NCBI GenBank assembly: GCA_963774265.1
Contig: CAVZDU010000008.1
Coordinates: 1 to 64,000, forward strand
From: an uncultured Chloroflexia bacterium
GTDB lineage: Bacteria; Chloroflexota; Anaerolineae; CG2-30-64-16
DNA length: 64,000 nucleotides
Reading direction: 5' to 3'
Made by a program: the position numbers and the translations under genes. The notes below the pieces were generated by a model. It made no database searches, was not told where the DNA came from, and worked only from the letters and a program-made list of their open reading frames with translations. The number at the start of each line of letters is the position of its first letter. Within the stretch, counting starts at the first letter, position 1. Positions 56,107-64,000 of this stretch are shown here, one piece after another.

Positions 56107-56176
56107 TTGACAAATGTGAGCCCAAGTGATAGTATGTGCATGCAATTAAGTTACTTATCATTCACATATGTGAATG
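56107..56176 (+). promoter_or_regulatory. BMC operon promoter with perfect 18-bp palindromic operator
   Basis: TTGACA-17-TGaTAGTAT (56107-56135). Palindrome CATTCACATATGTGAATG (56159-56176); related copy TTGACAAATGTGAG over the -35. Confidence 0.7.
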
Positions 56177-56338
56177 CCCTATTCCGACGGACCTTTGTAC
56201 CATCCCTGAATTGCAGCAGGTCAGTCAAGCTGGATCGCGAACGGGTGATCTCCCCTTGATTGCCTCGCATTCACCCCACGGCGTAGTTCCGTGGACAGTT
56301 GTCCCTCATTCACTGTCAGGATCGGAGATACTGACGCC

Positions 56339-58424
56339 ATGCGACAGGCTATCGTCTCAGAACCCCTCATCGATGCGAGGCTCGGGCTACCGCCCGCGCG
56401 CCTCACAGACATGCTCTACAAGATGCACCTCACGCGTATTTTCGAGGAATCAGCCTTCGAGCAGTACGCGCTCGGCAAGGTGCACGGCACGATGCATCTC
56501 TGCGCCGGGCAGGAAGCCGTGGCGATCGGTGCGATTGGCGCCCTTCGCCCGGATGACCTGATCATCTCGACTCACCGCGGCCACGGCCACGCCATCGCCA
56601 AGGGGCAGGACATCAACACGATGATGGCCGAGCTGCTGGCTAAGGAGACCGGTGTCTGCCGGGGTCGCGGCGGCTCGATGCACATGGCCGATGTGACTCT
56701 GGGCAGCCTGGGCGCAAACGGCGTCGTGGCCGGCGGCCTGCCGCTGTCGGTGGGCGCCGGGTTGACCCTCAAGCTGCAGGGCGGCGACCAGGTGTGCATC
56801 TGCTTCTTCGGCGATGGCGCATCGAACGAAGGCGCCTTCCACGAGAGCATCAACATGGCCGCTGTCTGGAAGCTGCCGGTCATCTACCTCTGCGAAAACA
56901 ACCAGTACGGTATGTCCAGTCGGTCAAGCACGTCATGGCGGCTGCCGATATCGCCGACCGCGCGTTGGCCTACGGCATCCCCGGCGAGACGGTCGATGGC
57001 ATGGACCCGCTGGCCGTCTACGAGGCCGTGAAGCGGGCGACAGCGCACGCCCGCTCGGGCAATGGCCCGGTGCTCATCAACGCCGTCACCTATCGCTACT
57101 ACGGCCACTCGAAGAGCGACAAGCAGCGTCTACCGCACCAAGGAAGAGGTCGAGACGTGGCGGGCCAGGGATCCGCTCGTTACGTTCCGCGATCGTCTGA
57201 TCGCTGACGGCGTTCTGACCGGCGCCGATGCCGCTGCCTTGGTCGAACAGGCTCAGAAGACGATCGACGACGCCATCGCCTGGGGCGATGCCAGCCCGGA
57301 GCCGTCGGTGGAGCACCTGACGGACGATGTGTACGCCGATGAGCCGGACGTGCTGGCTGCGCCGGAGCACGTGCTGCCGGCATGGATCAAGCAAACCTTC
57401 GGCCCCGCCACACGCCATCAATCCTGACCCCGGCGCCCGTGAGATCAGCTACTCTGAAGCGCTGCGCGAGGCGATGCGCGCAGGCGCTGAAAGCCGATCG
57501 ATCGTGTCTACCTGATCGGCGAGGACATCGGCGTTTACGGCGGTGCATTCGGCGTGACGCAGGGGCTCGATCGAGGAGTTCGGGCAGGAGCGCGTGCGCG
57601 ACACCCCCATCTCGGAGAACGCCATCGCGGGCGCGGCGGTGGGCACCGCGGTGACCGGGATGCGCCCCATCGCCGAGATGCAGTTCATGGATTTCCTGAC
57701 CCTGGCATGGAGCAGTTGGTGCTCCAGGGCGCCAAGATCCGCTACATGTTCGGCGGCAAGGCCAGCGTGCCGATGGTGCTCCGCCTGCCGGCCGGGTCGG
57801 GCACCGGCGCGGCGGCTCAACACTCCGAGAGCCTGGAGTCGTGGCTGGTGAATGTGCCGGGTCTGAAGGTGGTGGCGCCCAGCACACCGTACGACGCCAA
57901 AGGCTTGCTGCTGGCTGCCATCGCCGACAACAACCCGGTGATGTTCGTCGAGAACAAGCTGCTCTACAAGGCCAAGGGTCCCGTGCCGGAGGAACCCTAC
58001 ATCGTCCCGCTTGGCAAAGCTGCAATTCGGCGTCAGGGAAGCCATGTCACCGTGGTGGCGACGTCGATCATGGTCGTGCGTGCGCTGGAGGCGGCGCAGA
58101 AGCTGGCCCCGGAGGGCATCGAACTGGAGGTGATCGACCTCCGCACGCTCAAACCGTACGATGGCGAGACGATCATCGCTTCGGTGAAGCACACCGGACG
58201 GCTGCTGATGGTCCACGAGGCGCCGCTGATCGGCGGTTTCGGCGGCGAGATCGTCGCCATGATCGCCCAGAGCCCGGCGTTCGCCTACCTGGAAGCGCCC
58301 AATCGTGCGCCTGGGCGGCGCCGATGTGCCCATTCCCTACAACCCAAAGCTCGAACGTGCCGCGGTGCCGCAGGTCGAGGACATCGTCGAGGCGGCGCGG
58401 CAGCTTGCCCGCACCGAGATTTAG
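56339..58424 (+). CDS. TPP-dependent acetoin/2-oxoacid dehydrogenase E1, alpha and beta apparently fused; several frameshifts
   Basis: Alpha: [48 protein letters not shown]. Beta: [37 protein letters not shown]. No separate start codon or RBS seen for beta. Confidence 0.82.
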
Positions 58425-58437
58425 CAGGGGAATCCAT

Positions 58438-59873
58438 ATGCCGACCGCTGTGATCATGCCCAAGTTTGAGATGGCCCAGGAGACCGGCAAGGTGGCCACT
58501 GGCTGAAGGCCGAGGGTGACGTCGTCAAGAGAGGGGACGCCATCCTTGAGGTCGAGACCGACAAGGTCACCCTGGAGGTCGAGGCTTTAGCCGACGGGAT
58601 TCTGATGGGCATTACCGCCCGGACCGGTGACGTTGTGCCGATTGGCCAGACCATTGCCTATCTCGTGAAACCCGGCGAGTCGTTTTCCGGCGCAGGTCCG
58701 ACCCCTGCCAGTCGGGCGGTTGTCGATGCAGCGCAGCCGGCGCTATCGCGACCGTCCCACCCACAGGACGCCTCCGGCTCTGGGGATATTGCGCACGCTG
58801 TCTCGGCCTCGCCTCTCGCCGTTCGCCTGGCCGAAAACCTCGGTGTCGACCTGGCGCACGTGAAAGGCACGGGGCTGCGCGGACAGGTCACGCGAGAGGA
58901 TGTGGAGGCCTACGCTGCGTCGCAGCCGTCTCCATCCACGACCGACGATGGTAAAGTGCGCGCCGTGCCAGCCGCTCGACGTCTGGCGCGCGAGCTGGGG
59001 GTGGACCTGCGCAGGGTGGTTGGCACCGGGCCAGAGGGTCGCATCCAGCCGGACGACGTACGCGCGCACCTCCAAGCCACTGCCGTCGAAGGCGCGTCTA
59101 CCGCAGGGACCGCTGAGCCCGTTAGTGTTCAACTCGAGCCTCCCGTGGCATCCGCGATGCTTCCTGGCAGTCCCGCCATCCGCCGTCTGGTGCCGCTGAC
59201 CAACATCCGCCGCACCATCGCGGAACGCATGACGGCCAGCGTGCGTGAAGCGCCCCAGTTCACGGTCAGCCTGGACGCGGACATGACCCGCTCCCTGGCT
59301 ATCGTAGAGGATCTGCGCAATAGCGATGCGGGACCTGCCGGCCAGCCACGCATCACCCTGACCACACTGCTGATCAAGGCCAGCGCCTGGGCGCTGTGCC
59401 AGCACCCAGGCGTCAACGCCGCGTACCAGGATGGACAGGTCGCCGAGTGGGATGAGGTGAACATTGGCGTGGCCACTGCCATCGAGGCGGGATTGATCGT
59501 GCCGGTGATTCACCAGGCCGATCTGCTGGGGATGCGAGGAGTCGCTGCCCGGCTGGCCGATCTGACGAGTCGGGCACGCGAAAACCGGCTCAAGATCGAA
59601 GATCTGCAGGGCGGCACCTTCACCGTGTCCAATCTGGGCATGTTCGGCATCGATCGATTTACGGCCATCCTCAACCCGCCGCAGGCTGCGATTCTGGCCG
59701 TGGGGCGAGTCGCCAAGCGGGCGGTCGTGACCGCTGATGATCGCGTCGAGGTTCGGCCGGTGACCACGCTCACCCTGACCGCGGATCACCGGGTATTGGA
59801 CGGCGTCACAGCCGCGAAGTTTCTGGCGACGATCCAACGGGTGCTGGAGCATCCGGGCTTGTTGATGGAATAA
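58438..59873 (+). CDS. dihydrolipoamide acyltransferase (E2); frameshift near 58500
   Basis: Lipoyl domain EVETDKV; two E3-binding domains ([18 protein letters not shown]); [17 protein letters not shown]. Confidence 0.9.
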
Positions 59874-59894
59874 CAAAAGGTAAGGAGCGAGTGA

Positions 59895-62613: not shown

Positions 62614-62617
62614 AACT

Positions 62618-62944
62618 ATGACGCAGCCAAACGATCTCCAGACAACGAACGACGACATGGACCCGGGGATGCGAGCCCTCGGAATGATCGAAACGAAGGG
62701 GCTGGTGGCCTGCATCGAGGCGGCCGATGCGATGGTGAAGGCCGCCAACGTGAAACTGTTGGACCGCCGGGCCATCGGCGGCGGTTACATGACGGTGATG
62801 GTGCGCGGCGATGTGGGCGCAGTGCGGACCGCGTTGGAGGCGGGCAGCCAGGCCGCGCGGCGGCTCGGCCAGGTCGTCTCGGTACGCATCCTGCCCAGCC
62901 CGCACCTGGATCTGGAACATATCCTCCCTGAGATTGTGGAGTAG
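62618..62944 (+). CDS. BMC hexameric shell protein (BMC-H)
   Basis: [26 protein letters not shown]...[16 protein letters not shown]. Confidence 0.95.
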
Positions 62945-62947
62945 CGA

Positions 62948-63800
62948 GTGAGCGCGCCACGTATAACGCCAGCCAGGTTGCGGACCAAAAAGAGCCGCGG
63001 ACAGAAGATCACGATGCTGACGGCCTACGACTGCCCCATGGCCTCGTTTATCGACCAGGCCGGGGTGGACATCGTGCTGGTCAGCGATGCGGTGGGCACG
63101 GTGGGCAACGGCCGGCCCGAGGCGGTCTCGGTGACGGTGGACGAGATGATCTACCACACTCGCGCGGTGCGCAACGGCGCCAAGCGCTGCATGGTCGTCA
63201 CGACCCTGCCGTTTGGCTTCCTACAACACCACCGAAGATGCCCTGCGGACGGCGACCCGGCTGATGAAGGAGGGCGGCGCGGACGGCGTGCATCTGGAAG
63301 GCACCCGCCGCGAAGGCGCACCTGGTCGGCGAAATCACGGCTGCGGGCATCCCGGTGATGGGGCACGTCGGCGTGACCAAGCAGAAGATCGTCGGCACCG
63401 GCCGGATCAAGCTGCCCGGGCAGGACGCTGCGTCGGCGCGAAGAGATCATCGGCGACGCGTTGGAGATGGCCCGGCAGGGCGCGTTCTGCGTTGGTGCTG
63501 GAGTGTCTGCCGACTGCGCTGGGACGGATCATCACCAGAGCCTGGACATCCCGACGATCGGCATCGGTTCGGGCGCGGACTGCGACGGCCAGGCGTTGGT
63601 GACGCAGGACATGCTGGGGCTGTACAAGGAAATGTCGCCGCGCTTCCTGAAGGTGTATGCCGATCTGGCGACCACGATGGTGGACGCGCTCGGGCAGTTC
63701 CGCCAGGAAGTCGAAGGGCGGCGTCTTCCCGGCGCCCGAGCACACGTACCCGATCGACGACGGTGAGCTGCGGAAGCTACTGGCGCAGTTGCGGTCCTGA
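62948..63800 (+). CDS. PanB-like (ketopantoate hydroxymethyltransferase-fold) protein, divergent; several frameshifts
   Basis: KITMLTAYD, VTVDEMIYHTRAV, LEG, VMGHVG, LVLEC, IPTIGIGSG..CDGQALV..DMLG, PRFLKVY. Confidence 0.82.
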
Positions 63801-63905
63801 GAGACTTATTGGAGCACGATATCCCCCTACTTTTCGAGAGGATGCGTCGCAATCCTTTCGACGTTAAAACGGATACGCACAACAGGAAAGAGGGAGGTAC
63901 AACTC

Positions 63906-64000
63906 ATGGCTGAGTCTCTGAAGGGAAAGGTGGCGGTCATCACGGGCGTCGGCTCCGGGTTCGCGAAGGCCACGGCGGAGCTGTTCGCCACGGCTGACCA
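63906..64000 (+). CDS. SDR family oxidoreductase, N-terminus only (runs off window)
   Basis: RBS GGAGG; MAESLKGKVAVITGVGSGFAKATAELFA. Confidence 0.8.
   Translation, partial: MAESLKGKVAVITGVGSGFAKATAELFATAD

Follow-up and report, generated by a model that had tools for sequence, protein, structure and literature searches.

A microcompartment locus lacking an aldehyde dehydrogenase in an Anaerolineae bacterium, with an extended HUMPS enzyme and a PanB-like enzyme as candidate cargo

Introduction

Nearly all catabolic bacterial microcompartments (BMCs) follow one plan, in which the aldehyde produced by a signature enzyme is consumed by an acylating aldehyde dehydrogenase (AldDH). What, then, might be confined by a locus that has a full shell and none of this aldehyde/AldDH core? 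The question is raised by a locus in the genome of a soil Anaerolineae bacterium (G000; 5.5 Mb in 10 contigs, 84% complete). The window, the whole 64,000-nucleotide stretch of DNA analysed here, corresponds to G000:C8:1-64000 of the 354-kb contig C8. At 56.1-64.0 kb it carries a tightly packed, co-directional + strand row of genes, from a fused, thiamine pyrophosphate (TPP)-dependent E1alpha-beta gene to a short-chain dehydrogenase/reductase (SDR) gene, with the shell genes between them. The original prediction, made from the window, took the shell to be built around an acetoin-dehydrogenase-like E1/E2 complex, an HPS/KGPDC enzyme and a PanB-like enzyme. Pfam profile searches recovered every gene that it had listed, in the same order and on the + strand. 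Comparison with related loci leaves two of these, an extended enzyme of the UlaD/HPS family (HUMPS-ext) and the PanB-like enzyme, as the candidate cargo.

Results

Genes that travel with the shell

Scanning with the HUMPS protein, at one genome per species, yielded 76 loci, ~70 in Chloroflexota metagenome-assembled genomes (MAGs) and six in Desulfobacterales or 'delta proteobacterium' MAGs. Locus content was scored by tblastn with the intact proteins of G014, one of the relatives of G000, which are Chloroflexota MAGs of the class Anaerolineae. Shell genes were present in 41 of the 76 loci and absent from 35. The form of the HUMPS protein followed the shell: a C-terminal extension of 130 residues was found in 41/41 shell loci, and a short HUMPS of ~220 aa in 34 of the 35 shell-less ones. 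The remaining shell-less locus (L075) has the extension, and its sequence stops 340 nt after the catalytic domain. A PanB-like gene occurred in 32 of the 34 shell loci whose downstream sequence extends 4.2 kb or more and in 0/35 shell-less loci; the small helper gene occurred in 33 of the 34 shell loci with room for it and in no shell-less locus. PanB proteins at 76% identity or above were found in nine relatives, ten genomes with G000, all of which (10/10) have HUMPS-ext, and all other PanB matches across 41 genomes were at most 47% identical. The synteny thus defines a conserved module of HUMPS-ext, BMC-H, BMC-T, helper, BMC-P, BMC-H and PanB-like genes, inserted in putative sugar or sugar-acid catabolic operons that also occur without it.

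Five shell-less loci (L062, L063, L069, L073 and L079), whose HUMPS catalytic domains are ~80% identical to the query, have the gene order E1alpha-beta, E2, short HUMPS, SDR, and appear to be the operon of the window minus the cassette, that is, minus the extension (C-domain), the shell genes, the helper and the PanB-like gene. In a maximum-likelihood tree of the HUMPS catalytic domain the long/short label changed 7 times, 6 of these changes being forced by well-supported branches, and the Desulfobacterales sequences nested inside Chloroflexota. Because of these label changes and this nesting, we conclude that the cassette has behaved as a unit, with at least six gains or losses, and has crossed phyla, from Chloroflexota to Desulfobacterales in our reading. 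It is also rare: of 401 evenly sampled Chloroflexota genomes G000 alone had the C-domain, the 400 negatives being a measure of rarity and not of absence, and 11 of the 24 genomes searched within G000's own family had it.

Some shell loci carry two HUMPS genes (L054:3718-7910 on the - strand, L057 and L080). There, a short copy lies with E1alpha, E1beta, E2, HAD and SorC genes on one strand and a long, shell-linked copy lies on the opposite strand; the short and long copies fall into separate halves of the family tree.

The HUMPS active site

HUMPS-ext consists of a UlaD/HPS-family TIM barrel (residues 1-220) followed by the 130-residue C-domain. The catalytic domain aligned end to end with Escherichia coli UlaD (1kv8, 171.6 bits). 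It scored below the cut-offs of both KGPDC models of NCBIfam (198.8 < 294 for NF009831, the UlaD equivalog; 202.4 < 250 for NF009832) and of the HxlA model TIGR03128 (166 < 200). From what we take to be the KGPDC active-site set (D11, E33, D62, K64, D67, E112, H136, R139, T169 and R192 of UlaD), HUMPS retains all but two positions. R139, presumably part of the KGPDC proton relay, is W in 76/76 HUMPS proteins, with or without a shell, and position 169 is T in 38/76 and A in 38/76. Since the R139W change and the other active-site residues are the same with and without a shell, the chemistry of the family would be independent of the shell, and HUMPS appears to form a distinct branch between KGPDC and HPS.

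The C-terminal extension

In Foldseek, the top matches of the AF2 model of the C-domain (pLDDT 83, pTM 0.79) were to the small domain at the C-terminus of class-V aminotransferases (TMq 0.74, ~18% identity). A profile search of 1.84 billion representatives returned 58 matches, and 6 of the 10 that were checked were Aminotran_5 proteins, matched at their C-terminus. Model and profile matches indicate that the C-domain is derived from class-V aminotransferases, of which HUMPS-ext has the small C-terminal domain only, the pyridoxal phosphate-binding large domain being absent. A protein-atlas search with HUMPS-ext residues 232-361 gave no usable match. The domain contains an invariant C263-P-G-C266...C273 motif, the cysteines of which lie in a low-confidence loop of the model.

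A small class-V aminotransferase subfamily (P0009, P0012 and other Aminotran_5 matches) has the same CPGCDSP..C loop in its C-terminal domain as HUMPS-ext and is likely, on sequence grounds, to have been the donor of the HUMPS extension. A metagenome scan with P0009 found four relatives only, at 30-35% identity, none with shell genes or a C-domain nearby. Another protein, P0007 (289 aa), joins the N-terminal half of an aspartate-semialdehyde-dehydrogenase-like protein to a HUMPS-type C-domain (E 1e-36); the junction lies at a shared '..MGL.L' word, and P0007 could be a chimeric product of assembly, or else another cargo with the same domain.

The PanB-like enzyme

The orthologue of the PanB-like enzyme passes the cut-offs of TIGR00222 (276.3 > 207.55) and NF001452 (310.2 > 272) and matches Mycobacterium tuberculosis PanB (1oy0) over its full length with 213 bits. 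All shell-linked PanBs (32/32) nevertheless read LVSDA, V[VI][TS]T[LM]PF and VH.EGT where three PanBs of the PDB and the two other close paralogues of G000 have the canonical GDS, (A/G)D(L/M)PF and K(L/F)EGG; the changes are GDS to SDA, (A/G)D(L/M)PF to TT(L/M)PF and K(L/F)EGG to H(L/V/M)EGT. We take the changed positions to be the second metal-binding Asp (D84) and the substrate-binding Lys (K112). G000 has a separate panB beside a panC-like open reading frame (ORF), and the shell-linked protein appears to be a neofunctionalised paralogue under purifying selection. Automatic annotation will label the shell-linked copy 'PanB' and HUMPS 'HPS' or 'UlaD', names that are probably wrong in detail. 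The C-terminal 'IDDAEL..LL' of the PanB-like enzyme was considered as an encapsulation peptide and rejected, as the same tail is present in non-shell PanB paralogues of G000.

A third PanB paralogue, at G000:C10:1-9400, has canonical GDS/GDMP/KLEGG motifs. Its surroundings look like sugar catabolism, with a DeoC-family match (C10:4228-4869) and, by eye, ORFs for a split transketolase, an L-fucose-isomerase-like protein and a PfkB-type kinase, so that members of the PanB family may act in catabolism in this lineage. The fourth copy, at C2:811518-812330, is divergent.

Shell, helper and class of microcompartment

All three shell classes that had been predicted are present over Pfam cut-offs, namely two BMC-H, a tandem BMC-T and one EutN_CcmL protein (BMC-P). 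The locus therefore holds, contiguously, at least one BMC-H (PF00936) and at least one BMC-P (PF03319), by which a main BMC locus is defined. The best models for the shell proteins are CcmP, CcmL and CsoS1/EutM; the BMC-T match to the NCBIfam CcmP model (208 bits over 203 residues) is below the cut-off of 340. The helper is built of an N-terminal motif of ~45 aa, an invariant KPKGCQ(H) between Pro/Ala-rich linkers and a C-terminal amphipathic helix, and gives weak matches to the EutQ N-terminus and TIGR02536. As an idea only, three C-domain cysteines and the one helper cysteine could form a shared metal site; a predicted complex of C-domain, helper and a zinc ion scored 0.02 against a mark of 0.32 in a run without controls, and weighs neither way.

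Neither AldDH nor PduL had been seen in the part of the operon within the window, and this holds for the whole of contig C8, including the sequence downstream. AldDH (PF00171) had 6 matches in G000 and none on C8, the BMC-type match lying in a PDU-type locus on C6, a distribution compatible with a separate satellite locus dedicated to the window BMC. PduL (PF06130) had none on C8 and a single match in G000, at C6:78796-79332 in the same PDU-type locus, and DeoC (PF01791) had 5 matches in G000 and none on C8. The AldDH and PduL core that classical metabolosomes (PDU, EUT, GRM, PVM) have in the locus or, for AldDH, in a satellite was thus not found on C8. Because there is no AldDH on C8, we assign the locus to the BUF class, which the main text of Sutter et al. 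(2021, Nat Commun 12:3809, PMC8217296) describes as a main locus with BMC-H and BMC-P and without a pfam00171 AldDH; because there is no DeoC on C8, we do not assign it to SPU. The window locus appears to be an AldDH-less, BUF-class microcompartment of a rare, conserved type.

The PDU-type locus on C6 (L110; G000:C6:70000-88000) is a second BMC locus of this genome and a classical one. It encodes the large and medium subunits of a diol dehydratase, a reactivase, a PduO-type adenosyltransferase with an HbpS-like domain and a PduS-like Nuo51/RnfC protein, as well as AldDH, Fe-ADH, PduL, a flavoprotein, a PocR sensor kinase and seven PF00936 matches.

E1/E2 and the SDR

The E1/E2 complex, which had been thought to be central to the shell, is as common in loci without one: E1/E2 were found in the fetched flanks of 22 of the 41 shell loci and of 22 of the 35 shell-less loci, and the SDR is likewise present in shell-less sister operons. 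Comparing up to 8 shell-linked with up to 4 shell-less sister loci, we found no N- or C-terminal differences in E1alpha-beta, E2 or SDR. Because they are as common in the shell-less sister operons and are without shell-specific extensions, E1/E2 and the SDR are best read as parts of the host pathway and not as a signature of the shell. The original prediction therefore stands as to a real, conserved BMC locus, with synteny of PanB, HUMPS and the shell genes across many other genomes, and is not supported as to a shell built around E1/E2. Nor does the likeness to acetoin dehydrogenase hold, as E1 and E2 score closest to pyruvate dehydrogenase (PDH) in NCBIfam. E1 passed the PDH E1 beta subfamily model (370.9 > 321) and approached the E1 alpha equivalog (374.3 < 393.85); E2 matched PDHac_trf_mito best (348.9 < 445) and the acetoin-dehydrogenase E2 model NF011457 at the lipoyl end only (104.8 < 307). 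No AcoA/B model was among the 13 NCBIfam matches of E1.

G000 contains an unusually large family of E1/E2 paralogues, at C2:192790-196229 and at least six other places (on C1, C3, C4 and C5). Among them is another E1alpha-beta fusion, 50% identical to the query, accompanied by an E2 of its own (36%).

A shared candidate operator

The promoter-like site upstream of E1alpha-beta (Table 1) was the best of 6 such sites in 55600-64000, where shuffles gave 1.2 ± 1.2. With up to 2 mismatches, the palindrome that follows it was found directly upstream of the first operon gene in 28/76 related loci, shell-bearing and shell-less alike; the reversed sequence, used as a control, gave 1 match. The palindrome is probably the operator of a conserved regulon common to shell-bearing and shell-less operons.

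Broken reading frames in the assembly

The genes for E1alpha-beta, E2, BMC-P and the PanB-like enzyme are each spread over two to four frames in the G000 assembly. Alignment with four relatives showed 19 indels of 1-2 nt unique to G000 in 7.5 kb, ~17 of them frame-breaking. E1 has 8, E2 1-2, BMC-P 1 and PanB 6, and there were zero in HUMPS, in both BMC-H genes and in BMC-T. The orthologues are unbroken in G014, G012, G004 and G015, in which E1alpha-beta is a single ORF of 705-736 aa. Contigs from two other public runs, which contained 0.09 and 0.06 of the sampled words, have the opposite, frame-restoring indel at 8 sites (56916, 57129, 57413, 57479, 57499, 57570, 57704 and 58498/9); being mostly 90-95% alike, these contigs possibly come from relatives and were used for indel sites only. 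Because the relatives and the independent contigs are without the indels, these are most likely consensus errors of the assembly. The indel sites were also examined for a pattern of homopolymers or methylation motifs; by eye, only about 6 of 16 fell at GATC or CCWGG-like words, and we claim no such pattern.

Genes are split genome-wide: the housekeeping panB (C10:227702-228535) lies in 3 frames, an AldDH (C9:115668-117067) in 2 and an E1 at C1:1078062-1079579 in several. These splits fit frequent single-base consensus errors, so that gene calls on G000 will be fragmented.

Gene row and neighbours

Table 1. Sites and genes of the microcompartment operon, in window positions unless marked C8.
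Feature	Position	Strand	Basis and remarks
Promoter-like site TTGACA-17-TAGTAT, TG-extended	56107-56135	+	consensus match only, 10/12
Perfect 16-bp palindrome ATTCACATATGTGAAT, candidate operator	56160-56175	.	sequence
Fused E1 alpha-beta, TPP-dependent, PDH-like	56291-58424	+	E1_dh pieces 56291-57424; Transket_pyr/Transketolase_C 57491-58450; several frames
E2 dihydrolipoamide acyltransferase	58438-59873	+	lipoyl, two E3_binding and 2-oxoacid_dh domains (Pfam 58470-59870); frame broken near 58499
HUMPS-ext, UlaD/HPS-family, 361 aa, intact ORF	59895-60980	+	Pfam OMPdecase/HUMPS 59895-60977
BMC-H 1, hexamer shell protein	61013-61336	+	PF00936, 90 bits (Pfam 61013-61333); 96% identical to G014 orthologue
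BMC-T, tandem-domain, CcmP-like	61348-61977	+	PF00936 on second domain (Pfam 61348-61974)
Helper, 117-aa ORF (~110 aa)	61949-62302	+	ORF 61949-62299, without Pfam match
BMC-P, pentamer vertex protein	62322-62610	+	PF03319 EutN_CcmL 62289-62543; two frames by tblastn; indel near 62503
BMC-H 2	62618-62944	+	PF00936, 97.5 bits (Pfam 62543-62941)
PanB-like enzyme	62948-63800	+	Pantoate_transf pieces 62948-63763 in 4 frames; six indels
SDR	63906-64000, on to C8:64652	+	adh_short, 164.5 bits

As had been expected, the operon continues past the window; on C8 the row runs on into sugar-transport and sugar-phosphate genes. They encode a sugar ABC transporter, a protein of ~430 aa, a xylose-isomerase-like TIM barrel, a class II aldolase/epimerase and a URO-D-like protein, and further downstream two FGGY kinases, a SorC regulator, SMP-30, an HpcH aldolase and a 2-hydroxyacid dehydrogenase; UlaE-like, UlaF-like and FGGY genes are all found downstream in G000. 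Those Desulfobacterales loci that were annotated have GlpA/GlpB-like FAD dehydrogenases, an RpiR regulator and an aldo-keto reductase as neighbours.

The ~430-aa protein (C8:70692-72007), between the ABC permeases and the sugar-phosphate genes, is conserved and has no Pfam match; it also occurs in G007 and G014, with a copy at L028:2893-4188 (- strand). Downstream of the SDR gene, the gene for a periplasmic sugar-binding protein (C8:64743-67020, L109) consists of 2-3 near-identical tandem repeats. These are seen also at L029:9899-12052 and L030:9884-12775 and are fused to one ORF of 718-964 aa in some relatives, and they represent an unusual multi-domain binding protein or an artefact of repeat collapse or expansion. 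Directly upstream of the operon (window 53830-55821) lies an intact gene for a 663-aa fusion of a trypsin-like peptidase with an endonuclease/exonuclease/phosphatase domain, which appears unrelated to the BMC operon.

Discussion

Our best explanation of the whole is an AldDH-less BMC that holds HUMPS-ext and the PanB-like enzyme and confines a one-carbon (C1) fragment, an account that we favour and yet put at a little below an even chance. HUMPS-ext and the PanB-like enzyme are taken as the lumen enzymes because both, like the helper, are specific to shell loci. HUMPS-ext would be a Mg-enediolate enzyme of the KGPDC/HPS family acting on a 3-keto-hexonate or 3-hexulose 6-phosphate, which a neighbouring dehydrogenase together with a kinase or phosphotransferase system (PTS) would supply. 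The PanB-like protein would be a 2-oxoacid enolate enzyme in which the metal and substrate site has changed. This cargo may be recruited or organised by the C-domain of aminotransferase origin, perhaps acting with the cysteine-motif helper, and E1alpha-beta/E2 and the SDR would form the surrounding pathway. In both the KGPDC/HPS and the PanB families a metal-bound enol(ate) attacks or releases a C1 electrophile, which is CO2 or formaldehyde for the relatives of HUMPS and a formaldehyde-level unit for PanB. The two enzymes could thus form a C1 relay behind a diffusion barrier, one taking the fragment off a 3-keto sugar phosphate while its partner fixes it onto a 2-oxoacid, or the reverse. Formaldehyde, which the original prediction also put forward, is our first choice for the relayed fragment, since the PanB-like enzyme descends from PanB, R139 has been lost and formaldehyde suits the way microcompartments usually work; it is the most speculative step of the proposal, and we consider it doubtful. 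The case for CO2 comes from the closer likeness to KGPDC, the UlaE/UlaF/FGGY/PTS neighbours and the lack of 6-phospho-3-hexuloisomerase (PHI) in 4/5 genomes. In its full form, a relay of formaldehyde or CO2 by two enzymes brought in through a borrowed aminotransferase domain, possibly clasped by four cysteines to an adaptor, in a cassette that entered or left the same sugar pathway at least six times and passed from Chloroflexota to Desulfobacterales, the proposal is a tentative one that we expect to need revision.

Several observations weigh against parts of this account. HUMPS appears closer to KGPDC than to HPS, the HPS structures scoring lower (118.9 bits for 3ajx), and it keeps E112 and, in the clade of the window, T169. 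A bona fide PHI was over the cut-off in 1/5 shell-bearing genomes, and UlaE-like TIM barrels are present in 39/76 loci. The same HUMPS active site occurs without a shell or PanB in 35 loci, and the product thus need not be toxic. The cargo assignment itself is by co-occurrence alone; the PanB-like enzyme has no shell-specific extension, and two shell loci (L067 and L072) are without its gene. Part of this evidence would suit a sugar-acid decarboxylase compartment, in which a KGPDC-type HUMPS-ext converts a 3-keto-aldonate 6-phosphate to a pentulose 5-phosphate and CO2, a carboxysome-like shell retains the CO2 or a labile enediolate, and the PanB-like enzyme carboxylates a 2-oxoacid enolate or uses another intermediate. 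HUMPS is nearest to KGPDC in both NCBIfam and PDB comparisons, with E112 and H136 kept; UlaE-like, UlaF-like and FGGY genes follow the operon in G000; a UlaA-type PTS, EIIA and the xylose-isomerase-like TIM barrel are common in related loci; PHI is mostly missing; and the shell proteins score best on models of the CcmP, CcmL and CsoS1/EutM kind. These best matches do not indicate function, however, and the replacement of R139 throughout the family and the score below the UlaD equivalog cut-off weigh against decarboxylation of the KGPDC type. We also know of no PanB-family member that fixes CO2. On balance we regard the decarboxylase compartment as unlikely, and below the reading with a confined C1 fragment.

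The model that came with the original prediction, in which E1alpha-beta/E2 inside the shell cleaves a hydroxyketone or ketose to an aldehyde and acyl-lipoamide and E2 replaces AldDH/PduL, seems to us improbable. In the window and its closest relatives the operon starts with E1/E2, which share its operator, there are at least 8 E1_dh loci in G000, which makes the window copy a dedicated paralogue, and linkage of HUMPS to E1/E2 is widespread (44/76 loci). This linkage is nevertheless at least as frequent without a shell as with one, and E1/E2 were seen in the fetched flanks of no Desulfobacterales locus and of a minority of Caldilineaceae-type shell loci. The proteins have no shell-dependent termini, their NCBIfam matches are with PDH, and no E3 gene was seen in the operon, either in the window or among the downstream genes of C8. 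A decaying cluster of pseudogenes, the shell of which is no longer made, would account for the concentration of frame-breaking indels unique to G000, which are not in long homopolymers. We think this very improbable: there are zero in-frame stop codons, the pieces are 57-96% identical to unbroken orthologues, and the same kind of split hits the panB next to the panC-like ORF, an AldDH and other E1 genes elsewhere in an assembly of 10 contigs and 84% completeness. The frame is moreover restored at 8 of the same sites in the contigs of the two other runs, possibly those of relatives.

The account of a BMC with HUMPS-ext and the PanB-like enzyme as cargo would have several consequences. The enzymes linked to this shell belong to two metal-enolate families that the literature searched does not tie to microcompartments, and the known range of BMC cargo would widen. 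A C1 relay, if true, would make this the first microcompartment with a private formaldehyde, or with CO2 passed between two catabolic enzymes. With two enzymes and five shell and helper genes, the locus would also be a naturally minimal system for engineering. The strict pairing of shell and C-domain points to a new mode of cargo tagging through a folded, aminotransferase-derived domain, and the sister operons with and without the cassette offer a natural experiment on when encapsulation benefits a pathway.

Comparison with known systems

No paper linking microcompartments with ketopantoate hydroxymethyltransferase was found in the literature, and searches for microcompartments with KGPDC or HPS gave nothing apparently relevant, as judged mostly by listings; one of the papers so found, to judge from part of its text, deals with an ethanolamine BMC and a separate ribulose monophosphate (RuMP) pathway gene and is unrelated. 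As far as seen, four points would be new, namely the assignment of the cargo, the derivation of the C-domain from an aminotransferase, the remodelling of PanB and the repeated gain and loss. The locus itself may already be catalogued as a type of unknown function, for example BUF2, the comparison being with the main text of the catalogue. With the BUF class it shares BMC-H and BMC-P and the absence of pfam00171. According to the same main text, BUF2 is confined to one phylum, whereas the type described here also occurs in Desulfobacterales MAGs, and the BMC-Tdp proteins of BUF2/3 group close to those of SPU6, which is known from Anaerolineae; the enzyme content of BUF2 and BUF3 is given in Supplementary Data 2 only and is absent from the text of the preprint as well, and the main text has 0 occurrences each of pyruvate dehydrogenase, hexulose and hydroxymethyltransferase (PMC8217296). 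With SPU BMCs the window locus has in common the handling of sugar phosphates, BMC-Tdp and the occurrence in Anaerolineae (PMC8217296; PMC11585597). SPU loci are, however, defined there by DeoC (pfam01791), RpiB (pfam02502) and AldDH, and contig C8 has neither DeoC nor AldDH (RpiB was not searched).

Among enzymes, UlaD/SgbH of the ula/yia pathways are most like HUMPS, being its best match and sharing the metal and phosphate ligands, E112 and H136, and the UlaE/UlaF-like, FGGY and UlaA-type PTS neighbours. HUMPS differs from them in the W at position 139, in scores under both NCBIfam cut-offs, in its linkage to E1/E2 and, in shell loci, in the extra 130-residue domain. With HPS of the RuMP pathway HUMPS has in common the fold and the enediolate chemistry, the replacement of R139 by a hydrophobic residue and, in half of its members, Ala at position 169; it differs in its HxlA score, in keeping E112 and in the rarity of PHI in the same genomes. 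Engineered KGPDC variants, which these HUMPS residues recall, reportedly have raised HPS activity, and a deposited E112D/T169A mutant of KGPDC was among the PDB sequences matched by HUMPS. The PanB-like enzyme is a PanB by both model cut-offs but differs in all three canonical motifs.

Known encapsulation peptides and adaptors of BMCs include CcmN and the N-terminal peptides of PduP and PduD. The window locus resembles these systems in having a shell-specific cargo appendage and a small protein with a terminal amphipathic helix. Its appendage is unlike theirs in kind, since in place of a helix of ~18 residues there would be a folded, aminotransferase-derived domain of 130 residues with a CxxC...C loop.

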